A stretch of DNA of 27,556 nt, from positions 1 through 27,556 of the forward strand of contig JAHDHP010000017.1 in the NCBI GenBank assembly GCA_020631245.1. Reading direction: 5' to 3'. The position numbers were made by a program, and so were the translations under genes. Below the pieces are notes generated by a model, which worked only from the letters and a program-made list of their open reading frames with translations, had not been told where the DNA came from and made no database searches. Shown in pieces: positions 13,663-24,623 of the stretch. Source of the DNA: Bacteroidota bacterium. GTDB taxonomy: Bacteria > Bacteroidota > Bacteroidia > Chitinophagales > UBA2359. Each line of letters starts with the position of its first letter. Position 1 is the first letter of the stretch.

Positions 13663-13682
13663 ATCTATTTATTTTTATTTTT

Positions 13683-13897
13683 TGGGCGTGCCCCCATTTT
13701 TGCCAATCAAGCTGTTAGGTTTTCCCAAGCTGACAGGTTTTGATTGGCAAAAATGGGGTCGGGCTTTCGGCTAATAGTTGTCTCTTAGTAGCCTGTTCAG
13801 CTAAACGCCTAGCAGTGTCTTCCTTCGTCAGCCCTGCTAGTCGAAGCTTCACAAGGCTCCTACTTCGCCAATCTTCCGCCTCTATCCCTCACGCGAG
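13683..13897 (-). repeat. B-element copy in inverted orientation, ending ~20 bp upstream of the LRR paralog 1 start codon
   Basis: Reverse complement reads 'tcgcgtgagggatag..gactagcagggctgacgaaggaagacactgctag..agcccgacc', then the hairpin 'catttttgccaatcaa..ttgattggcaaaaatg', then 'gggggcacgccca'. Confidence 0.75.
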
Positions 13898-14097
13898 ACA
13901 ATGACTGAATGAGCGAATGACTGCATGATTGAATGAGTGTTACGCAGATATTTTAATAAGAATACTTTTGTCCCAAAGGGACATTATCTTTAACTTGAGG
14001 CACCGCCTCAAGCAATAAAATCAGCCCGAAACGTCTATGTCCTGAAGGGACAAAAGCACTAAGACAGAACTTCTTAAGCAAGACAAGTTTATTAGCC

Positions 14098-14272
14098 ATT
14101 ATACATCGTTTATTATCGAATGTATCGCTTTTACAAAGGTATAACGCGTAAGGGCATCCCTTGTGGGTGCCTCCGATGGAACGATTGACGATTTACGTGC
14201 GACGAAGGTACTTTTTTCCTTCACTATACATCGTATATTGTCAAATGAATCGCCTTTATAAGGAACAACACC
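14098..14272. repeat. Pair of ~50-bp direct repeats (D-elements, 'ttatacatcgtttattatcgaatgtatcgcttttacaaaggtataac') flanking a C-element copy (14188-14222)
   Basis: 14100-14150 and 14223-14272 align directly with a few substitutions. 'gacgatttacgtgcgacgaaggtactttt' at 14188-14222 matches 64-100. Confidence 0.5.
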
Positions 14273-14694
14273 AGACAATGATAGTACAAATAAGATCTAT
14301 CTTATCTCTAAGAAAATCTGTGGTTAATCAATTCTTTTTGAAGAAAAATAATTCCTTTTTTTTGTACATTCGGGAACTATAATTACCTTTAGTGCTGTTA
14401 TATAAACGTGGCTGTTCACAAATACCTACACAATACCATTCCAACAGGTATTATTTTTGTGTTAACAGTGTTAATTAACCATTTTTTATTTCCCTATCAA
14501 TTTCACCAACTTCCTTTTTTTATGATGACTAGGATCAGGTAATATTATTTTTTACAAGCATTTTGCCATATTTCCCAAATATGTTGCAAAGAAAGAAAAG
14601 TTTATCTATTTCCTAATTATCAAACTCTACAAAGATTATCTAACCTAAAGATACTCTTTTAGGAATCCTTTGTTTGGCAGAAATCTACTAATCC

Positions 14695-17600
14695 ATGCAG
14701 TTAATACAAGAAGTCCATTTGCATTTCCAAGATGCAAAGTCTGATAAGGTTTACGAAGTATATTTATACGAAGTAGGCAACGACCAATATCTCGTCAACT
14801 TCAAATACGGACGTCGAGGAGCCAATTTAAAAGAAGGCACCAAAACGGATCAACCTGTAAACCGAGCAAAGGCAGATAGTATATTTGAGAAGTTAGTAAG
14901 TTCCAAAACAAAGAAAGGTTATCAACAAGTACAAACTAATACTACTTCCTCCACTCCTCCCCCTCCAAGTTCCAATTGGGATCGTGAAGCTGCCACACAT
15001 GTCTTATTAACTTATCTTCAAGAAGCAATTAATAATCCAACGTCAAAGCCTTCTGAGCCAAAGAAAGACACTACTAATTCAAACAATAATAATCGTAATA
15101 AACCGCAGTCAGTTTGGGGAGCAATTACCAAATGGATAAAAGGGGAAGATACGACAAACAATAATCCTACTAGTAGTGCCACAAATGATGATACACCTCG
15201 TCAGCGACCAATAAGTCGAATTGTATGGCGTGTTGGAGAATTGCGTATAAAAGAAGCAACTCCACTCCTACTTCAGCTTCCTATTACCGACAAAATAATC
15301 GATCAATATAGCCTTGTTTGGGCATTGGGACGATGTGGTGATCCGAGTGCGATCCCTACTTTAGAAAATATGTTATCTGCTAAAGATGGGATTCCAGCCG
15401 TTCAACTATTGGCTGCCGAAGCCAAAATGGCTTTACTCGATAAAGCGGGGCAAAAATCTTGGAGTGAAGTGCTATTCAAAGCCCTTCCTATTGCCTTCCA
15501 AAATCATATACAAACTGAAAATATTGGAGGATTAATCAACTCCATCAATGAGCAAATAGAAGATAAAAAAGAAGCCTATCAACTCATTGCACATCTCTAC
15601 CTTATTTCTAACCATTATACAACTGCCAAACAAGCTGTTCATCAATGGGTGCAGGCTGCTCCTTTCAAAGGAAGTGGTTATTTCAAAAGTATTCGACAAT
15701 TATATAAAACAGCAGAATTCCGAGATGATGCAGCTTTATGGGGCTTGATAGTTCATCGTGTCTACACTTCTCGCGCTCCTTTCTACATCACTACTTGGAG
15801 TTATTACTATCGTAATGATGGTAAGATTCACTGTAACTCCGTGTTTTTCCCGAATGAAAATAGCAAGCGCAAAGGCTATGACAAGGATTACAACTATGTG
15901 CGTGGTGATTATATTCGAACTTTAGATGAGGTAAAAAAACCCAATTCACGGCTTGGCTTTTCGGAAGGAAGCAAAAAATATATTCAAAAACGAAGCTGGC
16001 GTGTTATCAAACGTCAAGCAGAAGCTGGAGAAGCAATGACCTATGTAAAAATGGCGGTTGGCTTTTTACTTGCCTTCACTGATGAGGACAAACAAGACAT
16101 TCCTCCTTTCGAATTTTATCGTTACAAACGCGTAGATGGTCGCTGGCGAAGTATTCGAGAATTGATCCACTACCCACCCTATGCTAACTATAGCACCTTT
16201 AATCATATTCTATATAGCAATAGCCCTCGTTTCGAATACCGAAACAATAATAATTGGGTGTATAAAAAAGAGGTGAGTAAAGATACGCCAGCTCCTACTA
16301 CTCGTGAAGAAGCTTACCCGCATTTCTGGGATGAAATACCACAAGGCATCCTTCACCTATTAGCAGAAAGCAACTGTGAAGCAGTCAATGAATTTGCTGT
16401 AAAAGCAGCAAAAGCGAATCTTAATAAGATAACTCCTCTCATCAATGTAGCATTTATCAAATTGCTACTCAATAAAAAATACAAGGATACTGCCTTATTG
16501 AGCATTGAACTAGCCAAAGCAATTTATGACCCATCTAATCCAGATACAGAGCTTATTTTAGCTCTCTTGAATGCAGTTGTACCAGAAGCGCGAAATTTAG
16601 GACTAGAGTGGTTACGCGTACAAAAAGATTTTTATTTCCAAGATGCTGATTTTGTAACGGCTTGTGTATTCAATCCTCATAAAGATATTCAAGAGGAATT
16701 AGACAACTTGCTAGGTAATCATACCTTTAGTGATGATCTAAATACTGCTATTGTTGCCAAAGTAACCGCTCGTTTATTGGCTTATCCTGCCGAAGTTACC
16801 GACGAAGATCGAAAAGCGATATTACAGGCAGCCGAATACCTCAATAAACACTTTACAGCTACACTTCAGCAAACGAGTATACAAACCATTCAGGATTTCT
16901 TGGACCACCCTGTTTCTGAGGTCAAAGTTTTTGGAGCCAAAATATTACTCAATCACCCTACTGATATAAAAGACTTACCTGAACAAACCATTGCTTCATT
17001 GATTAATGGGGAGTCAGCAGAAATGCGAGCAGTAGGAACACAATTACTAGGAAAACTTCCAAAAGAAGAATTACTAAAGAAGCAAGAATTACTAAAAGAA
17101 CTGTGTTTATCACCTCATCCAGAGGTACGTCAAAGCATCCAAAAAGTCATTGCCGAATTAGCCAATGAAAACAAGGAGTTTGGAGATAGTTTTACCCAAC
17201 AAATTGTTCCTCAATTATTGAAGCGAGAAGAACACGAAGGACGTGATACAGATATAAGTACCCTATTAAAAGATCATTTGAGTGCGCATCTACCTACCAT
17301 TCCTTTGCGTATGATTCTCAAATTGATTTACTCGCCTCGCCAAGCTGCCAATCAAATGGGTGGATATTTACTGGTCAGCCATGTTAAAGAACCTGACCTG
17401 AAAATGCGACAAATTGTACGCTTGGCAAATCATGAAATGCAGGAAATACGCGATTGGGTAAAAGCAGCTTACAATAATAATATTCCACGAGTTAAATACG
17501 AACTCAAAGAATCGATTCGCTTAGTGGATGCCAAATGGGATGATAGTCGTGAGTTCGCTTTCAACTATTTCCGTCAACAACTGAGCAAAGAAGATTGGAC

Positions 17601-18075
17601 GCCAGATATTTTGGTGAGTATTTGTGATAGTGTCAATGTACCTGTACAGCAATTTGGGAAAGAAATGATTACTCGCTTTTTTGAAGAGAAAAACGGCGAA
17701 CAATATCTCCTTCAGCTTAGTCAACATCCTACTGCTGATCTCCAAAGCTTTGCCACCAATTACTTGGATCGTTTCGCCTCTGATAATCCAGAAAATATCG
17801 TCAAACTAGAATTATATTTCGTTACTGTACTATCTGGTGTTAATAAGTCAAGAGTGGCTAAAAAACGCATCTTCGAATTCTTGAGAAAAGAGGGTTTGAA
17901 GAGTGAAGAAACAGCTAAACTGGTAGCGGGAATCCTAAAAAGACAATCAGCTACTATGGCAATTGGAGATAAGGCAAAGTGTATCAGTATTATGCGTGAT
18001 TTAGATGCCATTTATCCGAATTTAGAGTTGCCAATAAAGGTAAAAGAAGTAGCAGATTTCCCAATAAATACGTAA
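14695..18075 (+). CDS. WGR-domain protein with an S/T/N/P-rich linker, HEAT-like repeats and a long C-terminal region (MolR / DUF4132-like architecture)
   Basis: N-terminal WGR signature 'KVYEVYLYEVGNDQYLVNFKYGRRGANLKEGTK..KGYQQV'. Low-complexity segment at ~aa 80-180. PBS-lyase/HEAT-like 'WALGRCGDPSAIPTLENML'. 1126 aa, ATG start. Confidence 0.85.
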   Translation: MQLIQEVHLHFQDAKSDKVYEVYLYEVGNDQYLVNFKYGRRGANLKEGTKTDQPVNRAKADSIFEKLVSSKTKKGYQQVQTNTTSSTPPPPSSNWDREAATHVLLTYLQEAINNPTSKPSEPKKDTTNSNNNNRNKPQSVWGAITKWIKGEDTTNNNPTSSATNDDTPRQRPISRIVWRVGELRIKEATPLLLQLPITDKIIDQYSLVWALGRCGDPSAIPTLENMLSAKDGIPAVQLLAAEAKMALLDKAGQKSWSEVLFKALPIAFQNHIQTENIGGLINSINEQIEDKKEAYQLIAHLYLISNHYTTAKQAVHQWVQAAPFKGSGYFKSIRQLYKTAEFRDDAALWGLIVHRVYTSRAPFYITTWSYYYRNDGKIHCNSVFFPNENSKRKGYDKDYNYVRGDYIRTLDEVKKPNSRLGFSEGSKKYIQKRSWRVIKRQAEAGEAMTYVKMAVGFLLAFTDEDKQDIPPFEFYRYKRVDGRWRSIRELIHYPPYANYSTFNHILYSNSPRFEYRNNNNWVYKKEVSKDTPAPTTREEAYPHFWDEIPQGILHLLAESNCEAVNEFAVKAAKANLNKITPLINVAFIKLLLNKKYKDTALLSIELAKAIYDPSNPDTELILALLNAVVPEARNLGLEWLRVQKDFYFQDADFVTACVFNPHKDIQEELDNLLGNHTFSDDLNTAIVAKVTARLLAYPAEVTDEDRKAILQAAEYLNKHFTATLQQTSIQTIQDFLDHPVSEVKVFGAKILLNHPTDIKDLPEQTIASLINGESAEMRAVGTQLLGKLPKEELLKKQELLKELCLSPHPEVRQSIQKVIAELANENKEFGDSFTQQIVPQLLKREEHEGRDTDISTLLKDHLSAHLPTIPLRMILKLIYSPRQAANQMGGYLLVSHVKEPDLKMRQIVRLANHEMQEIRDWVKAAYNNNIPRVKYELKESIRLVDAKWDDSREFAFNYFRQQLSKEDWTPDILVSICDSVNVPVQQFGKEMITRFFEEKNGEQYLLQLSQHPTADLQSFATNYLDRFASDNPENIVKLELYFVTVLSGVNKSRVAKKRIFEFLRKEGLKSEETAKLVAGILKRQSATMAIGDKAKCISIMRDLDAIYPNLELPIKVKEVADFPINT

Positions 18076-18080
18076 TGTAG

Positions 18081-18100
18081 AGACCTTGCGTGCAAGGTCT
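18081..18100 (+). other. Short perfect hairpin between the WGR and SWIM genes
   Basis: 'agaccttgcgtgcaaggtct' is an 8-9-bp palindromic stem. No T-run follows, so it is not called a terminator. Confidence 0.3.
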
Positions 18101-18163
18101 AAATAAAAATATTACGTACAACATCTGATTCGCCAATAAACAAAATAAAAAATAACACCCAAT

Positions 18164-19804
18164 ATGTTATTCAATTACAAATATAGTGGAAGTACTTCAG
18201 TAGAGAGCAATAGTAGCTCTACCAATATGTCTTTCGCACCAGATACGCTTCGAGAACCCACCTTTTTTCGAGGTACACTAGCCAAAAACATTCCCTTTCG
18301 GGAAGCTATCTCTGCGCTTCATGATGTAGTAGTATCTGACCTACGTTGGAAACCCAAAGATCGCGAGGAATATAAAGCTTGGGCAGCACAACAAGAACAA
18401 CTATACCTAGAAACGATACAGTCTCAAAAAAGTGCTAATGAGGAAAAAATTAAGGAAGTACGTGCCAAGTTAAATGTCTTAAATGACCAGTCAAATGCCA
18501 TCATGGCTCCTTATTATACTGCACGACGAAAGTACTTCGACTATATCTACAAAAAAGATCGTGACGCTTGGTTTGTACTAGATCCAGTCATTACTGTACA
18601 CCCTGACGAAATCTTTTACGAGTGTTTTAGCCAAGATGAATCCACTTATGGACGCTTGGGTTGTAGCTATGAGGTCTTTAAAAATATCAACGAATTTGAG
18701 TGCGGTACTACGAATATCGACTACTCGGATGCCCTATACAAAGAATTTCAAAAAATACGCGACTACAAAGAAACTGACTTTGTTGTTGACCCAAGTGGCT
18801 TTGAAGTAACCACTGAAAACGAAGACACTTACAAAGAGCTAAAGATTGACCTCCCAGATAGTTGGGTACGTGGCTTCTTACAAGTAAGCTCAGCCATGAC
18901 ACTCGACACTACTGAGTTTAATCTACATCCTCTCGATGTCTACAATTTCTTATTCATTCTCAAACGTTTCAAAGAGAAAAAAGGACCTCGTTCCATTCGC
19001 TTCAAATTGAAACCAGGAGCACCTATCAAAGCTGTGTTTGAGCCGTGGAATTATGAAATAGTTTGTGATCGTAGTATTTACCCAGGAAACGAAGAGAAAG
19101 AAATCCGCATTTGGGGACGCCGTCGCCTACTAATTTTGGAACGTCTTATTCCTGTAACCAAAACCTTCAAAGTACGCCTTTTAGGAACAGGACTCCCCTC
19201 TTTCTTTATCGCTGATTTAGGAAATATGTCCTTTACATTAGGTTTATCGGGCTGGACTAAAAACGACTGGTCACGAGCAGGCAATTTCGACTTGATGGCT
19301 CCACGTGCCGAAGTCGATTTATTCACCAAGAACAAAGTCTTCCAATCACTCAAAGAAGACTGGCGCATGTCGGCAGATGATTTGTCGAAGAAAATGAAAC
19401 TCGACAAAGCCATCATTACAGGTGCATTATCTGCCTACACACAAGCAGGAAGTGTTATGTACGATATGAACAAAGACATGTATCGAGTACGAGAGCTAAG
19501 TCGTGAGCCACTACCTTTTGAGAAGCTTCGTTTTTCGAATGAGCGTGAACAACTTGCCAACGAATACCTCAAAGATGAGGCAGTAAAAGTGGAAGTAGAA
19601 TATCCAGGTGATGGCGTGAAAAAACTGAAAGGAGTGGTTGAAAGTCGCTCCAATCGAAAGAAATTTAATACCGAATTGGTGATTGATGGCGACCAGCGTT
19701 TGGTCAAAGCCAACTGCAATTGCCGATTCATACAAAAAAACAAATTGTTTAAAGGTCCTTGTGAGCATATTCTAGCCACCCGCTTAAAAAGCAATCAAGG
19801 ATAA
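18164..19804 (+). CDS. SWIM zinc-finger protein (YehQ-like)
   Basis: C-terminal CxC-x(n)-CxH signature 'CNCRFIQKNKLFKGPCEHILATRL'. 546 aa. Its stop codon lies about 10 bp before the first unit of the repeat array. Confidence 0.8.
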   Translation: MLFNYKYSGSTSVESNSSSTNMSFAPDTLREPTFFRGTLAKNIPFREAISALHDVVVSDLRWKPKDREEYKAWAAQQEQLYLETIQSQKSANEEKIKEVRAKLNVLNDQSNAIMAPYYTARRKYFDYIYKKDRDAWFVLDPVITVHPDEIFYECFSQDESTYGRLGCSYEVFKNINEFECGTTNIDYSDALYKEFQKIRDYKETDFVVDPSGFEVTTENEDTYKELKIDLPDSWVRGFLQVSSAMTLDTTEFNLHPLDVYNFLFILKRFKEKKGPRSIRFKLKPGAPIKAVFEPWNYEIVCDRSIYPGNEEKEIRIWGRRRLLILERLIPVTKTFKVRLLGTGLPSFFIADLGNMSFTLGLSGWTKNDWSRAGNFDLMAPRAEVDLFTKNKVFQSLKEDWRMSADDLSKKMKLDKAIITGALSAYTQAGSVMYDMNKDMYRVRELSREPLPFEKLRFSNEREQLANEYLKDEAVKVEVEYPGDGVKKLKGVVESRSNRKKFNTELVIDGDQRLVKANCNCRFIQKNKLFKGPCEHILATRLKSNQG

Positions 19805-19814
19805 ACAAACGAAA

Positions 19815-20001
19815 GAGCTTGCAATCTATGGGCGGTGTATCACCGCTTTTGTTGACAATCTTAGCATACACCACTAGCCGTCTCTTTAAGATGCGATCTA
19901 GCACTACTATCGGGTTTTCTGGCTCGATTTCATAAATCAAAACCCGATAGTAGTGCGAGATCGCTTGGAGTTGAGTCATCTAGTACCGAGCTTCATCGAA
20001 G
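19815..20001 (+). ncRNA. Array unit 1 (putative retron ncRNA). Unique hairpin at 19893-19974.
   Basis: 26-bp stem 'gcgatctagcactactatcgggtttt' / 'aaaacccgatagtagtgcgagatcgc' with one mismatch. 20-nt loop 'ctggctcgatttcataaatc'. Confidence 0.6.
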
Positions 20002-20055
20002 CCTTTTCGTTTCATTCTTTATTTCGTTATTTGACATTTTTAAAACCATACGCAC

Positions 20056-20242
20056 GAGCTTGCAATCTATGGGCGGTGTTTCGCCGTTTTTGTTGACAAT
20101 CTTAGCATACACCACTAGCTACCTCTTTAAGTTGCGTACTATCAGATATATTCGGTTTTCTGTTTGGCTTTCGTCAAGCTAAACCGAATATATCTAATCG
20201 TCCGCTTGGAGTTGAGTCATCTAGTACCGAGCTTCATCGAAG
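20056..20242 (+). ncRNA. Array unit 2. Unique hairpin at 20134-20205.
   Basis: Basal 'gcg/cgc', then an interior loop. 15-bp perfect stem 'agatatattcggttt' / 'aaaccgaatatatct'. Loop 'tctgtttggctttcgtcaagct'. Confidence 0.6.
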
Positions 20243-20276
20243 TACACGCGTATGGTTCTCGTAATTTACACCTACT

Positions 20277-20465
20277 GAGCTTGCAATCTTTGGGTAGTGT
20301 TTCGCTACTCTTGTATACAATCTTAGCATACACCACTGGCCACCTCTTTAAGGTGCGAGACAATGCAAGATGGTGCAGTTTTCGGCATGTCTTTCGTAAA
20401 GAAAAACTGCACCATCTTACAGTCTCGCTTGGAGTTGAGTCGTCCAGTTCTGAGCTTCATCGAAG
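20277..20465 (+). ncRNA. Array unit 3. Unique hairpin at 20355-20427.
   Basis: 'gcgagac' / 'gtctcgc' basal stem, then an interior loop. 16-bp stem 'aagatggtgcagtttt' / 'aaaactgcaccatctt'. Loop 'cggcatgtctttcgtaaagaa'. Confidence 0.6.
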
Positions 20466-20508
20466 TAAACAGGTGTAAATTACTTATTCAACTATTTCAC
20501 ACAAGAAA

Positions 20509-20696
20509 GAGCTTGCAATCTTTGGGCGGTGTATCACCGCTTTTGCTGACAATCTTAGCACACATCACTGACTGCCTCTTTAAGTTGCGTGATAGACAAC
20601 TATGTCGGAATTCCTGTTCGGTTTTCGTAAACCGATTTCCGACATAGTTATCATCCCGCTTGGAGTTGAGCCATCCAGTACCGAGCTTCATCGAAG
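20509..20696 (+). ncRNA. Array unit 4. Unique hairpin at 20587-20659.
   Basis: Basal 'gcg/cgc', then an interior loop. 14-bp stem 'aactatgtcggaa' / 'ttccgacatagtt'. Loop 'ttcctgttcggttttcgtaaaccgat' with the nested mini-hairpin cggttt/aaaccg. Confidence 0.6.
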
Positions 20697-20759
20697 TACA
20701 CTTGTTGTGAATAGTTGATTTTTTAACACCACTTTTTCTCATTAAAAAATTGTTTTATT

Positions 20760-22283
20760 TTGTCTCAACCCAAAACTCGACAAGAACTATACGAACAAAT
20801 TCGTCAAACATCTAAGGCAGAGTTTATTTTATCAGAAATGATTCGACTTGGATTTTGGGAGGAAGGAGATGGGCAACCTTCTCTTCCTACTGCATTCATT
20901 AAAGAACGTGCTGATTTACACCGTGAACTCAGCAAGTTGATGTCTACTGCGCGAAAGCTGGACAATCCAGACCAAGTGCTAAAAGAGTATCGTCAAAAAC
21001 GCCTTAAAGAGTCGAACGAAAAACAACAGGAAAATCGAGAAAGACGAGAAAAAGAACGCTTAGAACGAGCCGAAAAATGGAAGGAGCGAAAAAGTAAAGA
21101 GATTGTTTACTTAGGTGAAGAAATTTCAGGTGGATTAAATGAAACCGACGCGAATGAAGAACAACTCAAGCGTTTTGGTTTACCCAACTTTGAAAACGCT
21201 GCGATTTTAGCGGAAGCAATGGGAATTGATTTGGGGAAATTGCGCTTTTTGGCTTACAACCGTAAAGTGAGTAAGGTATCGCACTACAAACGCTTTTACA
21301 TGGCTAAAAAGTCGGGAGGCAAACGACTCATTTCTGCTCCGATGCCACAGCTCAAAGGTGCCCAATATTGGGTATTAGAAAACATTCTAAACAAAGTCAA
21401 TATTCACGAAGGGGCGCATGGTTTCCGTCAAGGGCATTCGATTGTCTCTAATGCTCAAAATCACGTCGGACAGGATGTAGTGATTAACTTCGATTTCAAA
21501 GATTTTTTTCCCACTATTACTTTTAAGCGGGTAAAAGGCTGTTTTGTCAACTTGGGCTATTCGGAGCAAATCGCAACCATCTTTGCAGCCCTTTGCACCG
21601 AACCCGATGTAGATGAGGTCGAAATGGATGGACATACTTATTATGTCGCTAAAGGACCGCGTCACCTTCCACAAGGCGCGCCTACCAGTCCTGCATTGAC
21701 CAATATAATTTGCTATAAACTTGATGCACGCATGGCGGGTATGTGCAAAGTGCTAGGTTTTAATTATTCGCGTTATGCGGATGATATGAGTTTTTCTGCT
21801 TCAGGTGATGCGGTTAAAGATGTGGGACGACTCATTTGGTCGGTTCATCAAACTGCCGAATCGGAAGGCTTTATGATTCATCCTGATAAAACGCGGGTGA
21901 TGCGCAAAAACCAACAGCAAGAGGTGACTGGCATTGTCGTGAATGAGCAATTGGGGATTGATCGGAAGGAGTTGAAAAAATTTCGAGCTTTATTACACCA
22001 AATTCGCCAAACAGGTATGGCTGGTAAGACCTGGGGGGCTGGTAAGGATTTGGCTGCTTCTATCTGGGGTTATGCTAATTTTGTGGCGATGGTCAAACCT
22101 GAAAAGGGGGCAAAATTGGTCGCTGAAGTGAAGCAAATTTTAGGTAAACAAACGCCTAGTAAGCCTGCTGGTTCGTCGGAAGGAGAAAAAGATTTGGCTC
22201 GTAAAATTGCAGCGGAGAAGGAACGATTAGAGCAAAAGAAGAAGGAGGAAGATGATAAAAAAGATAATTGGAAAATGTGGTAA
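20760..22283 (+). CDS. Retron-type reverse transcriptase with a ~160-aa N-terminal coiled-coil extension and a ~100-aa K/E-rich C-terminal extension
   Basis: RT motifs 'KRLISAPMPQLKGAQYWVLENIL', 'FRQGHSIVSNAQNHVGQDVVINFDFKDFFPTI' (NAxxH), 'LPQGAPTSPALTNI', 'YSRYADDMSFS' (YADD) and 'QEVTGIVVNEQLGI' (VTG). The ORF begins at a TTG at 20760. The first in-frame ATG is at 20838. Confidence 0.85.
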   Translation: MSQPKTRQELYEQIRQTSKAEFILSEMIRLGFWEEGDGQPSLPTAFIKERADLHRELSKLMSTARKLDNPDQVLKEYRQKRLKESNEKQQENRERREKERLERAEKWKERKSKEIVYLGEEISGGLNETDANEEQLKRFGLPNFENAAILAEAMGIDLGKLRFLAYNRKVSKVSHYKRFYMAKKSGGKRLISAPMPQLKGAQYWVLENILNKVNIHEGAHGFRQGHSIVSNAQNHVGQDVVINFDFKDFFPTITFKRVKGCFVNLGYSEQIATIFAALCTEPDVDEVEMDGHTYYVAKGPRHLPQGAPTSPALTNIICYKLDARMAGMCKVLGFNYSRYADDMSFSASGDAVKDVGRLIWSVHQTAESEGFMIHPDKTRVMRKNQQQEVTGIVVNEQLGIDRKELKKFRALLHQIRQTGMAGKTWGAGKDLAASIWGYANFVAMVKPEKGAKLVAEVKQILGKQTPSKPAGSSEGEKDLARKIAAEKERLEQKKKEEDDKKDNWKMW

Positions 22284-22349: not shown

Positions 22350-24623
22350 CTATAAGTCCCAGCCATACTCTTCTTGAAATCGTTGATTGTTTTTAAGTTC
22401 TCTTTGAAAAACTTTATGATAATGATGGTAGCAGAAATAGAATATCGGTAAGTGATCTATTTCTGCTTCTTTTGTTTGTAGCTTTATTTTTCTATTATTA
22501 TCTATCTCATCTAAGTTAGGATTGAAAAGTTGATGTTTTCTAGCCATTACCTTCCTTATTTTTTCGGAACCATATAAACGCAATAAATTGGCGGCTGCCT
22601 GTTTATTGGTTTTGTCTTCAGCCAATTTATAAATTGCTAGTAATAGTGGTACTATTTTTTTGGGTACTCCTCCCCCTTCCAGCATTCCTAGACCTATAGC
22701 TACATTTTCTGCTTCTGGATTTACTAATAAATTAATGAGCATTGATAAATCTACCATTTCATCTTCCGCAAGGAGGAAAGGGGTTTCATGTTGATGGAGA
22801 AATTGAAGGAACTGTGGTTCTAAAAAGAAGACCAATCGTTCTTTATTTAGATCTTTGGTAATTGGTACATTTTTACCTAGTAAAACATGCGTTGTATTAT
22901 CAGTAATTTTAGTGGTGGAAGCAATATTTAAGTCTGTCAATTTTTCCCTGATTTCTTTTCTGGCGTGAACCGTCTTACCTAATATCAATACTTCTGAATT
23001 TTCTGTAAGTGGTTGTTCGGAAAAGGTGGGCGACTGTACCGCTAGATTCACAGCTGCTTTATGTTTTAATTCGGAAACGGGGAAAAATAAAGCGGGTAGT
23101 AAATCTACTCGTTTTAATTGCACAATCTGCTCCTCTTGTTCATTTAAAATGTGTAGCATATTTCGCTGTACCTGCCACGGTATTTGCTCTTTCCACTTGG
23201 AGAGAGCTTGTACGAATAAAAAGTAAGCACGTGTTAATAAAATAGGTTCTTCGAAATCAGTAATTCCTAGTCCTTTTAATTCATAATCAGGTGTAACTAT
23301 TATTTTTTTAGGAATCCATGAAGCTAAAGCAGGGTAAGTTTCTATAAGCGTAGCTAGTTTTCGAAAATAGAAAGCTCCTGTAGGAATATTTTCGAGATGT
23401 TTATTGGTGAGCGATACCGTTTTTATATGCTTGGCTAATGCTAGTGAAATGGGATAGGTTTTAAGTGGATTATCCTGAGCACAGATCATACGACACTTAG
23501 GCAGATCGCCAATGGTCTCTGGAAGCGATTCGAGTTTATTTTTACGACAATCTAAGAATTTGAGTTTAGGAAGCTGTCCTATTTCATTAGGGAGTTTATT
23601 AAACTCTCCCCAAGCCATATTTAAAGATTCTAAGCTGGTGAGTTGCCCAATACTGGAAGGAAGTGTCTCCATTTGACTATTGTTCAATTGGAGTAATTTT
23701 AGCTTCTTGAGCTTTCCAATGGTAGGTGGCAGACTTTTGAGGGGGGTAGCAGCTAATTGTAAGTTTTCGAGTTTGGGCAAGTTACCTATTTCAAGGGGTA
23801 AATCTTGGAGTGGGTTATGATTAAGATTTAAGATCTTTAGGTGGTTTAAGTTTTCAATGCTTACAGGGAGCGTTTGGAGTTGGCAATAAGCCAGTGATAA
23901 TGTATTTAAACGCATCATATCTCCTATTGATGCGGGAAGTTCAGTCAGTGGATTTTCTTGTATACTCAGTTCTTTAAGTTTGTGAAGTTTGCCAATGGTG
24001 TTGGGTAGTCTTGTGAGTTTGTTTTTATTCAAGTCTAGTAGTTCTAAGTATTGGAGATAGGCTATCTCATTAGGAAGCTCTTTAAGTTGATTGTTGGTAA
24101 GATTTAATCGCTGCAAGAGGCGCATGTTTCCTATTTCTCTGGGTAGTGTTTCTAGGTGATTACCCAGCAAATGTAAAGCGATTAACTCATGGAAATCGCT
24201 AATAGTTGTGGGAAGTGTTTTTAGATAATTGTGGGACAGATTTAATTCAAAGAGCCGTTTTAATTGTCCCATTTCGAGGGGTAGTGTTTGTAATTGGTTA
24301 TTAGACACATCGAGCAATCGGAGGTGCTTTAATTGTCCTATTTCGGGGGGTAATTGTGTTAGTTTATTCCAAGTAAGTTTGAGTACACGTAGCTTTTTAA
24401 GTTGCCCAATTTCGGGGGGTAAACTGTTGAGTTGATTGCTGCTAAGATCAAGTGTTTCAAGGTTTTTAAATTGACCAATTTCAGGTGGTAAACTGGTAAG
24501 GTGATTGTTGGACAGATTTAATTCCTGCACAGCTCCGCCTTTACCGAATATTTCGGCAGGTATTTCGGTAAGCTGTTGATGATTGAATTTGAGTTGCATG
24601 GAGGAATGAATAGAACATGCCAT
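22350..24623 (-). CDS. LRR protein paralog 2. ~350 aa of N-terminal LRRs plus a C-terminal BRCT-like / 'GGGVP' module.
   Basis: 757 aa. About 14 repeats of the form 'LxxLPPEIGQLKxLxxLxLxxNxL'. 'DNTTHVLLGKNVPITKDL' and 'GLGMLEGGGVPKKIVPLLLAIYKL' are shared with the other two paralogs. Confidence 0.85.
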   Translation of the reverse strand: MACSIHSSMQLKFNHQQLTEIPAEIFGKGGAVQELNLSNNHLTSLPPEIGQFKNLETLDLSSNQLNSLPPEIGQLKKLRVLKLTWNKLTQLPPEIGQLKHLRLLDVSNNQLQTLPLEMGQLKRLFELNLSHNYLKTLPTTISDFHELIALHLLGNHLETLPREIGNMRLLQRLNLTNNQLKELPNEIAYLQYLELLDLNKNKLTRLPNTIGKLHKLKELSIQENPLTELPASIGDMMRLNTLSLAYCQLQTLPVSIENLNHLKILNLNHNPLQDLPLEIGNLPKLENLQLAATPLKSLPPTIGKLKKLKLLQLNNSQMETLPSSIGQLTSLESLNMAWGEFNKLPNEIGQLPKLKFLDCRKNKLESLPETIGDLPKCRMICAQDNPLKTYPISLALAKHIKTVSLTNKHLENIPTGAFYFRKLATLIETYPALASWIPKKIIVTPDYELKGLGITDFEEPILLTRAYFLFVQALSKWKEQIPWQVQRNMLHILNEQEEQIVQLKRVDLLPALFFPVSELKHKAAVNLAVQSPTFSEQPLTENSEVLILGKTVHARKEIREKLTDLNIASTTKITDNTTHVLLGKNVPITKDLNKERLVFFLEPQFLQFLHQHETPFLLAEDEMVDLSMLINLLVNPEAENVAIGLGMLEGGGVPKKIVPLLLAIYKLAEDKTNKQAAANLLRLYGSEKIRKVMARKHQLFNPNLDEIDNNRKIKLQTKEAEIDHLPIFYFCYHHYHKVFQRELKNNQRFQEEYGWDL

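Follow-up and report, generated by a model that had tools for sequence, protein, structure and literature searches.

The question raised by this locus was what kind of system is formed by a reverse transcriptase (RT) gene, the array of ncRNA units before it, and the two genes for WGR and SWIM proteins that precede the array, and how its parts might work together. The window, that is, the whole stretch of DNA analyzed, is 27,556 nt long and comes from a Bacteroidota metagenome-assembled genome (MAG). A preliminary description had presented the cluster as a candidate novel effector module and suggested that a retron with such partners would be an undescribed system.

Organization of the locus

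The three co-oriented genes and four ncRNA-like units of the preliminary description were recovered, with the open reading frames exact to the nucleotide. All lie on the + strand: the gene for the WGR and HEAT/ARM accessory protein (14695–18075; 1126 aa, ATG start), the gene for the SWIM-finger protein (18164–19804; 546 aa, ATG start), four structured ncRNA units of ~235 nt each, and the retron RT gene (20760–22283; 507 aa, TTG start). The tight spacing also stood: 88 nt separate the WGR stop from the SWIM start, the conserved core of unit 1 begins 10 nt past the SWIM stop codon, which the 5′ flank of that unit overlaps, and 41 nt lie between the 3′ arm of unit 4 and the RT start. A convergent LRR gene (22350–24623) is found 66 nt past the RT stop. 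The intergenic region upstream of the WGR gene (13663–14694, 1032 nt) had been called repeat-laden; it does contain repeats, but they are modest: a 19-nt inverted repeat without mismatches, a direct repeat of 40 nt, and short 8/16-nt tandem repeats.

A regular-expression scan (TAnnTTTG) pointed weakly to a candidate Bacteroidota-type −7 promoter box, TATTTTTG, at 14452–14459 on the + strand, ~240 nt 5′ of the WGR gene. The same scan gave no box within 14880–19131, inside the ncRNA array, or before the RT gene. Scans for sigma-70 promoters and terminators were not above shuffled sequences; the host belongs to the Bacteroidota.

Identity and conservation of the module

All three proteins matched PADLOC type XIII models over their full length. 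The 1126-aa protein matched WGR_XIII with E = 0 (residues 1–1120), the 546-aa protein matched SWIM_XIII with 3.3e-235, and the RT matched RT_XIII with 2.4e-194 (645 bits; next model 8e-100, 333 bits). Mestre et al. 2020 (PMC7736814) based their definition of type XIII on RT clade 10, comprising Retron-Mxa1/Mx162, Mxa2/Mx65, Sau1/Sa163, and Nex2/Ne144. Its SWIM partner is of the cluster-114 type, with a central DEDE motif, a winged helix, and a C-terminal SWIM finger CxCx12CxH, and its second partner is a preceding WGR-like and HEAT/ARM protein, cluster 216 (PMC7736814). The locus agrees with this definition gene for gene, including the CxCx12CxH finger and the gene order. We conclude that it is almost certainly a chromosomal type XIII retron, from the family to which the classical myxobacterial retrons Mx162 and Mx65 belong. 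This retron type, listed in both PADLOC and DefenseFinder, has the WGR/HEAT–SWIM pair as its signature accessory module; the earlier proposal of an undescribed system and a novel effector module fails, because the same combination was defined as type XIII in 2020 (PMC7736814) and has HMMs in PADLOC. Our literature searches found neither a mechanistic study of type XIII nor experimental evidence for phage defense by any type XIII retron. The type is distributed patchily over many phyla; its inheritance correlates with 16S, as expected for vertical descent, and a role other than defense has been suggested (PMC7736814).

The order WGR/HEAT, SWIM, ncRNA(s), RT was found in related loci L001, L003, L005 (Desulfonema), L006 (Rhodocytophaga), L007, and L089 (Nannocystis). 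The same co-oriented order holds in genomes of Bacteroidota, Desulfobacterota, and Myxococcota, and it also holds in most metagenome loci. The co-localization anticipated in the preliminary description was borne out by a survey of 50 informative metagenome loci fetched via the SWIM protein: the RT gene adjoined the SWIM gene in 40 of the 50 (downstream in 37, upstream in 3), and the WGR/HEAT gene immediately preceded the SWIM gene in 40 of 42. No RT was present within 5 kb in the other 10 loci, 7 of which still had an ncRNA unit, mostly directly after the SWIM gene. Because the gene order recurs across phyla and metagenome loci, there is good reason to tie the WGR/SWIM pair functionally to the retron. 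The window neighbors of the retron are genes for LRR proteins, dnaG, and genes for a cyclophilin and TPR proteins, and do not make up a defense island. Flanking LRR/BRCT-like genes were considered as part of the system and rejected, because they are absent from L005–L007 and L089, although L001, the closest relative, has kept them.

The ncRNA array

The four units occupy 19792–20026 (unit 1, an msr-msd unit; core 19815–20002, msd hairpin 19893–19964), 20033–20267 (unit 2; core 20056–20244, msd hairpin 20134–20205), 20255–20490 (unit 3; core 20277–20467, msd hairpin 20356–20429), and 20486–20721 (unit 4; core 20509–20698, msd hairpin 20590–20657), all on the + strand. Their covariance-model scores were 254, 247, 244, and 251 bits, respectively. 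The array is well above chance, with direct-repeat families of four copies and model scores of 244–254 bits at E ~1e-57.

Each unit is flanked by its own a2/a1 inverted repeat. In unit 1, which folds at −80 kcal/mol, the arms of this unit-specific repeat (inverted repeat I1) are 26 nt long and form a flank duplex; unit 2 has its own arms (I2) and a cognate duplex of −16.5 kcal/mol. Unit 3 has arms at 20261–20273 and 20471–20483 (I3 and I6; 13 nt, 100% complementary; −18.1 kcal/mol), and unit 4 at 20488–20505 and 20701–20718 (I4 and I5; −18.8 kcal/mol). Pairing is specific to the unit, with a mean of −20.7 kcal/mol for cognate duplexes against −7.4 kcal/mol for noncognate ones.

Within arrays the scaffold is 86–93% identical, whereas the arms of the msd stem are 35–45% identical and still form 26–30 bp. 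Compensatory changes occurred in 29 of 68 consensus pairs among the four window copies. The structure was kept in 15 units from six loci, where 30 of 45 pairs had compensatory changes. Arrays of 2–7 units recur among related loci, and their msd stem is hypervariable and always paired. Two stems have counterparts in L001: that of unit 2 has an orthologue with 83% identity, and that of unit 4 is 94% identical to L001 unit 3.

A covariance model built from the window units found one unit at the same position in the Nannocystis locus (82 bits). By this match, rather than by the Mx162 sequence itself, the window ncRNAs can be assigned to the type XIII family. No curated Rfam family could be assigned to the ncRNA, because Rfam gave only sub-threshold miRNA-like matches on the hairpins. 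Natural ncRNA arrays were not mentioned in the searchable papers.

The accessory proteins and the reverse transcriptase

The WGR domain occupies aa 7–81 of the first protein (nt 14713–14937, + strand; Pfam WGR, E 1.5e-7). WGR domains have a role in PARPs. The remainder of the protein is a HEAT/ARM solenoid (Pfam HEAT_2, 3.7e-7; PADLOC HEAT-ARM_XIII, 1e-41), and a search of PDB sequences returned only designed alpha-Rep HEAT proteins. The protein had been called DUF4132-like, a label that has to be dropped: DUF4132 (PF13569) gave no match even at E ≤ 10, and BLASTP against E. coli YehI gave nothing. This partner is fast-evolving, with homologues at 33–52% identity and a median identity of 34%.

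The SWIM protein is the conserved member of the pair. Its sequences from Bacteroidota, Cyanobacteria, Desulfobacterota, and Myxococcota share ~60% identity (median 62% across phyla, unusually high for an immune effector), and a further protein search seeded with divergent representatives returned only this conserved clade. Its finger, C518-x-C520-x12-C533-x-H535 (nt 19715–19768, + strand; Pfam aa 507–538, E 1e-4), lies in a predicted C-terminal beta domain. The predicted layout ahead of it, on the same strand, is an N-terminal region with long helices (aa ~68–131), a PCNA-like two-domain clamp at aa about 140–365 (nt ~18581–19258), a range taken from the secondary-structure pattern, and a winged helix at aa ~385–445 (nt ~19316–19498). 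The protein is thus predicted to adopt the two-domain fold of a clamp monomer, similar to PCNA and 9-1-1. The prediction was made without templates; AF2 with 33 close homologues gave a pLDDT of 58, and a larger alignment rescued the model. Searches of PDB sequences with the SWIM protein gave no match, and neither phmmer nor a profile search against them found clamp homology. The SWIM protein was also examined for an RNase H-like catalytic fold that bears the acidic motif, as in DDE/Mutator-like transposases, and no such fold was seen. Residues D140, D148, E153, D186, and E225 are invariant, and a passive clamp does not account for them. No clamp-loader-like gene is evident in the locus, and the literature searched held no relevant link between retrons and clamps.

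In the RT, the Pfam domain RVT_1 was matched at E 3e-24, and the motifs typical of retron RTs were found on the + strand at nt 21450–21464 (NAQNH), 21774–21785 (YADD), and 21924–21932 (VTG). The closest solved structure is that of the Ec86 RT (8e-44). The protein has an N-terminal extension of ~130 aa and ends, after a low-complexity linker, in a conserved tail N-W-K-M-W (nt 22266–22280, + strand). The pattern W-[KRNQD]-[LMIFV]-[WFLVT] forms the extreme C-terminus in 46 of 53 related RTs, where it follows a variable K/P/E-rich linker; it looks like a tethered docking peptide.

Proposed mechanism and alternatives

All retron types characterized so far are anti-phage systems, and their general logic is an autoinhibited complex of msDNA, RT, and effector that is triggered by phage (PMC13376987). 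Following this logic, we infer the interactions and output below for an msDNA-bound, clamp-like sensor complex, a scheme that we hold tentatively and rate as plausible yet somewhat short of probable. The whole cluster would be transcribed as a single unit, and the RT would reverse-transcribe the msd of each of the four self-contained ncRNAs, giving four msDNAs that have a common scaffold and are set apart by ~19 bp within the long stem of the hairpin. Rather than a nuclease toxin, the SWIM protein would be a PCNA/9-1-1-like clamp module to which a winged helix and a SWIM finger are fused. It may bind the duplex stem or a junction of the msDNA, and the C-terminal W-K-(L/M)-W tail of the RT may tether it, much as polymerases bind their clamps. 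The WGR domain of the HEAT/ARM protein might recognize a nucleic-acid end or branch, and the fast-evolving solenoid could serve as a protein-interaction or sensing surface. The complex of msDNA, RT, clamp, and WGR/HEAT protein would then act as a guard whose state changes when phage factors modify, degrade, or bind the msDNA, and several msDNA variants would widen its sensing range. The change of state might release the DNA-end- or duplex-binding proteins to block replication or growth; this output step is a guess, because neither accessory protein has a recognizable toxic or enzymatic domain. The earlier remark that neither resembles the usual retron effectors agrees with this. Several observations speak against the scheme: the surroundings of the locus are not a defense island, the SWIM protein is strongly conserved and the type vertically inherited, ten surveyed loci have no RT nearby, clamp homology is absent at the sequence level, and the invariant acidic residues do not fit a passive clamp.

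The same type XIII complex might instead have a domesticated cellular role, for example in sensing or regulating DNA ends or replication stress in the manner of a checkpoint; the msDNA would then be the inbuilt ligand of both a 9-1-1-like clamp and a PARP-like WGR reader. Vertical inheritance and the non-defense functions already suggested (PMC7736814), the cross-phylum conservation of the SWIM protein, the housekeeping genes around the window locus and related loci, and folds that recall eukaryotic DNA-damage sensors all favor such a role. However, the patchy distribution over many phyla, the fast-evolving WGR/HEAT protein, and the varying ncRNA copy number are typical of conflict systems, and every characterized retron type is anti-phage (PMC13376987). 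We regard a cellular role as possible but rather unlikely. Mestre et al. (PMC7736814) inferred a DEDE nuclease, and on that reading the SWIM protein would be a transposase-derived, toxic effector that the msDNA keeps inactive or guides. The invariant motif D140-x7-D148-x4-E153-x32-D186-x38-E225, whose spacing departs by at most one residue from the published Dx7[D]x4Ex30-32Dx37E, speaks for a nuclease, as do the SWIM fingers known from Mutator-type transposases (PMC7736814), but the fold predicted for this region is that of a clamp, and we consider a nuclease unlikely.

A further reading takes the four variable msd stems of the array as guides of the spacer kind, directed at particular foreign sequences and read by the WGR and SWIM proteins. 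A hypervariable stem cassette in a constant scaffold and arrays of up to seven units would suit such guides, but the variable parts are self-complementary hairpins and had no above-chance match elsewhere in the window or among the 50,697 records of a phage collection (best E 0.9), a weak test because the collection covers environmental Bacteroidota phages poorly; we judge spacer-like guides very unlikely. It is scarcely credible that the WGR–SWIM pair is an autonomous module merely located beside a retron. The model for that reading is E. coli K-12, in which the genes yehF (WGR), yehH/molR, yehI (DUF4132), yehLMP (MoxR/VWA), and yehQ (SWIM) form a co-oriented cluster without an RT or ncRNA, and the metagenome loci lacking a nearby RT could be cited in its favor. 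Most of those loci keep an ncRNA unit, however, and in 40 of the 50 the RT gene is adjacent. In addition, the WGR protein has no DUF4132, and the window has no MoxR or VWA (AAA/VWA) partner genes. The analogy to MolR and YehQ drawn in the preliminary description holds for the small WGR and SWIM domains and goes no further: hhalign of the SWIM protein with YehQ gave a probability of 1.2% over 31 columns, with the finger (30 aa) alone aligned, and the WGR domain was matched only at E 0.02. Homology to YehQ, YehI, and YehF beyond these domains, including full-length similarity, was rejected by the hhalign and BLASTP comparisons.

Returning to the sensor complex, its most specific form would make type XIII retrons machines in which a SWIM ring or half-ring sits on the msDNA hairpin, the WKLW tail tethers it to the RT, the WGR–HEAT protein reads the branched end, and arrays with a hypervariable stem supply a repertoire of ligands of differing specificities. 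In this full form the idea is unlikely to hold; if true, it would be a new retron effector principle and the first natural multi-template retron.

Comparison with known systems

The earliest retrons to be discovered belong to type XIII, which is among the most widespread types. The leads offered by this locus are the predicted sliding-clamp fold, for a protein that the literature takes to be a transposase-like nuclease, the conserved RT tail, and the natural tandem ncRNA arrays. The locus has in common with published type XIII retrons (PMC7736814) the RT subfamily, the SWIM protein with winged helix, DEDE-type motif, and finger, the preceding WGR/HEAT protein, and an RT-adjacent ncRNA. It differs in having four tandem ncRNA units, where the published description implies just one, and a Bacteroidota MAG as host in place of a myxobacterium. 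Like the characterized tripartite retrons (for example Ec86/Eco1 type II-A, Ec78 type I-A, and type IX), it joins accessory genes in a single operon to an RT and a structured ncRNA that has a2/a1 arms and an msd hairpin, and by analogy control of the accessory proteins by msDNA is likely. Unlike those retrons, it has accessory proteins without an NDT, ATPase/HNH, Toprim, TIR, protease, or HEPN domain, and its RT has long N- and C-terminal extensions.

The predicted clamp module has its nearest known counterparts in the PCNA, 9-1-1, and beta sliding clamps and in herpesvirus processivity factors that bind the C-terminal tail of a polymerase. It has no detectable sequence homology to them and forms one protein with a coiled coil, a winged helix, and a SWIM finger, and the motif in the RT tail differs from both the PIP box and QL[SD]LF. 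The engineered multitrons (PMC10370050) resemble the locus in having tandem msd templates served by one RT. Multitrons are synthetic, whereas the array described here is natural, each unit has its own msr and a2/a1 arms, and only the stem cassette varies; natural multi-template retrons of this kind could inform multiplexed retron editing.

Identity of the retron locus

The coding part of the retron cluster consists of three genes on the + strand, and our ORF calls placed them exactly where the preliminary description had: a gene for a 1126-aa protein with Pfam matches to WGR (amino acids 7−81) and HEAT repeats (14695−18075), a gene for a 546-aa protein with a C-terminal Pfam SWIM finger (18164−19804), and a gene for a 507-aa retron reverse transcriptase (RT) with a TTG start and a Pfam RVT_1 match (20760−22283). 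The retron-specific motifs NAxxH (as NAQNH), YADD, and VTG were all present in the RT. When PADLOC models were used, the WGR/HEAT protein matched WGR_XIII over residues 1−1120 (E = 0), the SWIM protein matched SWIM_XIII (3e-235), and the RT matched RT_XIII (2e-194), which scored twice as high as the next-best RT model.

These three models go back to the classification of retrons by Mestre et al. (2020; PMC7736814), in which type XIII has three parts. Its RTs correspond to RT clade 10, with the experimentally known retrons Mx162, Mx65, Sa163, and Ne144; a linked protein combines a winged helix with a centrally placed DEDE motif and a SWIM finger of the form CxCx12CxH at its C-terminus; and ahead of this comes a WGR-like protein with HEAT/ARM repeats. 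In the window protein the finger is C518-x-C520-x12-C533-x-H535, and the invariant acidic residues (D140, D148, E153, D186, and E225) have a spacing that differs from the published motif by at most one residue. All of the testable defining features were found, and we assign the locus to retron type XIII. The proposal that it represents an undescribed system is thus withdrawn, the type having already been catalogued. The window corresponds to an entire NCBI contig of 27,556 nt, and its nearest relatives were Bacteroidota/Chitinophagales MAGs.

Transcription and genomic surroundings

The cluster is tightly packed, with 88 nt between the WGR and SWIM genes, 10 nt from the SWIM stop codon to the conserved core of the first ncRNA unit, 41 nt from the 3′ arm of the last unit to the RT start, and 66 nt from the RT stop to a convergent LRR gene. 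A motif scan for the Bacteroidota-type −7 box (TAnnTTTG) found a single one 5′ of the cluster, at 14452, and none inside the ncRNA array or before the RT gene. A sigma-70 promoter scan of the window, whose host belongs to the Bacteroidota, performed no better than with shuffled sequences. The packing and the placement of the −7 box are weakly consistent with a single transcription unit.

The 1-kb intergenic region upstream of the WGR gene (13663−14694) had been called repeat-laden; we found few short repeats there, including a perfect 19-nt inverted repeat (13692−13710 and 13740−13758), an 8/16-nt tandem (13900−13936), and two 40-nt direct repeats (at 14097 and 14222). The short interval that separates the RT stop codon from the convergent LRR gene is filled by 2.6 copies of the 23-nt tandem repeat AACACGGAGCGCACAGAGAGGGG (22283−22341; 97% matches). 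Three paralogous LRR proteins, all encoded on the − strand (11632−13662, 22350−24623, and 24878−27319), flank the retron on both sides and show weak BRCT-like similarity (E = 2e-4 to 8e-3). The LRR gene 3′ of the RT is kept in the closest relative, locus L001 (56% identity), and is absent from more distant retron loci. The same contig carries ordinary chromosomal genes for a 7TM-HD receptor (1421−3568) and DnaG primase (3589−5532), and the retron is therefore chromosomal, outside any obvious mobile element or defence island.

Conservation of the gene order

The order WGR/HEAT, SWIM, ncRNA(s), RT was kept in L001, L003, L005 (Desulfonema ishimotonii), L006 (Rhodocytophaga aerolata), L007, and L089 (Nannocystis sp.), with RT identities to the window of 87% (L001), 62% (L007), and 57% (L003). 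For a broader survey, 80 metagenome loci were fetched by means of the SWIM protein, and RT counts were made for the 50 with at least 3 kb of downstream sequence. An RT gene lay directly 3′ of the SWIM gene in 37 of these 50; three had the order RT-WGR-SWIM, and in ten an RT was absent from the nearest 5 kb. Of 42 informative loci, 40 had a WGR/HEAT homologue directly 5′ of the SWIM gene. The preliminary description would have been refuted had homologous RTs never adjoined WGR or SWIM genes; the opposite was observed, and its view that the WGR/SWIM pair is functionally linked to the retron is upheld by this conserved order, even as its claim of novelty is not. Median identities to the window over 45 loci were 62% for SWIM, 54% for RT, and 34% for WGR/HEAT; judged from these sequence identities, the three proteins evolve at strongly different rates, WGR/HEAT fastest.

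An ncRNA unit was still present in seven of the ten RT-less loci, mostly directly 3′ of the SWIM gene. Either an RT works in trans at these loci or they are decaying, and under neither reading do they point to an independent WGR-SWIM module. The seven (L027, L043, L059, L067, L076, L079, and L081, which lack an RT for up to 5 kb) each retain SWIM together with one or more units that look intact, and an upstream WGR/HEAT homologue was detected in all except L043 and L079. Unrelated genes (Fe-ADH, DUF72, Calx-beta, exosortase) lie 3′ of the unit in L027, L043, and L059, and L076 has a second unit 5′ of its WGR gene. In L045, L050, and L084 the order is RT, WGR/HEAT, SWIM, the RT ends in DWWNIL, and no ncRNA was detected within the fetched stretch. 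L030 (5001−7906) encodes a SWIM-family homologue (63% identical) whose next gene codes for a C-5 cytosine DNA methylase, with no WGR/HEAT gene, ncRNA, or RT nearby. In L001 the SWIM protein (92%) and RT are intact, and the WGR/HEAT protein (477−3080; 77% identical) lacks about 285 residues in frame (window residues ~776−1059), which could reflect either genuine loss of part of the solenoid or an error in assembling the MAG. In L005 a predicted gene of 147 aa with no Pfam match (9687−10130) separates SWIM from the array.

The ncRNA array

Four repeats of ~235 nt lie between the SWIM and RT genes, and their conserved 5′ and 3′ modules form repeat families of 81 and 91 nt with four copies each. 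Every unit is a full retron ncRNA in itself, with unit-specific a2/a1 flanking inverted repeats, a conserved 5′ msr part holding a small conserved hairpin, a central long msd hairpin with arms of 19−26 nt, and a conserved 3′ part. A covariance model derived from the window units scored each copy at 244−254 bits, with compensatory double changes among the four copies in 29 of 68 consensus pairs; it also recovered the single unit of the myxobacterial L089. Over 15 units from six loci, the consensus structure had 45 pairs (compensatory changes in 30), and the duplex of a unit's own 5′ and 3′ flanks averaged −20.7 kcal/mol vs. −7.4 for non-cognate flanks, so the flanking arms are cognate. Small ORFs of 81−104 aa overlapping the array (20164−20478 and 20363−20647, + strand; 20497−20742, − strand) are almost certainly spurious.

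Window and L001 have four units apiece. Among the surveyed loci, 25 had one unit between SWIM and RT, eight had two, one had none, and single loci had three (L011), four (L065), or seven (L023). Within each array the scaffold is 85−99% identical and a ~19-nt segment of each msd stem arm is just 30−47% identical; despite this variability the msd hairpin was paired in all cases (23−30 bp). Three of the four window stems have L001 orthologues (83, 80, and 94% identity), although the order of two units is swapped, and the first stem has none there. The largest array, L023 (5480−8183), has seven full units and one partial unit before the RT and a ~970-nt stretch without units (7124−8098); the stems of its units 5 and 6 do not differ, suggesting a recent duplication.

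The SWIM protein and the RT tail

No PDB sequence relatives of the SWIM protein were found. An initial AlphaFold model, for which 33 close homologues were used, was of low quality (pLDDT 58), yet its Foldseek matches were exclusively sliding clamps; with 146 homologues the model improved to pLDDT 76.7 and pTM 0.74. The clamp module was placed at about residues 140−365 by four helices alternating with beta sheets, and the protein is predicted to be clamp-like. The invariant basic residues K197, R199, R236, and R319−R321 lie on or beside the modelled helices and would suit a DNA-facing inner clamp surface.

Type XIII RTs have a long C-terminal extension past the region aligned with Ec86 RT. Of 53 complete RT ORFs in the surveyed loci, 46 carried W-[KRNQD]-[LMIFV]-[WFLVT] at the extreme C-terminus, typically as PWWKLW (NWKMW in the window), preceded by a variable K/P/E-rich linker. 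Many polymerases dock on clamps through a short conserved aromatic C-terminal motif behind a disordered linker. Taken together, the RT tail and the neighbouring clamp-like fold, two independent observations, suggest by analogy that a tether may join the RT to the SWIM protein. We found no literature linking retrons to clamps.

Possible function

We tentatively propose, as a possibility short of an even chance, that the locus encodes a clamp-held msDNA guard complex that is perturbed by phage. The RT would make four msDNAs, and the clamp-like SWIM protein would hold both the duplex of the msDNA and the tail of the RT. An end or branch might be read by the WGR domain, and the interaction or sensing surface would be the HEAT/ARM solenoid, which evolves fastest. 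Phage factors would disturb this guard, with growth or replication arrest as the output, and the ncRNA array would broaden the range of msDNA ligands.

A checkpoint-like role outside defence, to which we give about one chance in four in all, would fit vertical inheritance (PMC7736814), the extreme conservation of the SWIM protein, and contexts outside defence islands. It is rather improbable, at roughly one chance in five, that the SWIM protein is a DEDE-nuclease effector. The invariant acidic motif supports this reading, and the predicted clamp fold does not account for those residues, but that fold opposes a nuclease, and the best 60 structure matches included no RNase H-like or transposase structures, which counts against the published DEDE-transposase origin. 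That the msd stems act as spacer-like guides is very unlikely; comparison of the stems with the rest of the window and with a phage collection in which environmental Bacteroidota phages are thinly represented gave nothing above chance. A WGR-SWIM module independent of the RT we consider scarcely credible.

Comparison with known systems

In E. coli K-12, yehF (WGR family), yehH (a pseudogene), yehI (DUF4132), yehLMP (MoxR, VWA), and yehQ (SWIM) form one co-oriented cluster, so the suggested MolR/YehQ analogy holds for the clustering of WGR and SWIM genes. The similarity is confined to small domains: the YehF match to the window covered only the WGR domain (E = 0.02), and alignment of the SWIM-family profile to YehQ was limited to the ~30-residue finger, at 1% probability. 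The label DUF4132-like for the large protein is likewise unsupported, BLASTP of the window proteins against YehI giving no match and a DUF4132 domain search none up to E = 10. The two clusters use the same two small nucleic-acid-binding domains and are not one family.

Tandem or multiple ncRNAs are not mentioned by Mestre et al. (PMC7736814) or in the 2026 SPIRE retron survey, and the retron arrays that we found in the literature were engineered ones only. New leads on an old, uncharacterised retron type come from prediction and comparative analysis, in the form of a clamp fold predicted for the SWIM protein and the tail of the RT. Compared with type XIII as published, the locus differs in having a four-unit ncRNA array, and such arrays recur in the family.
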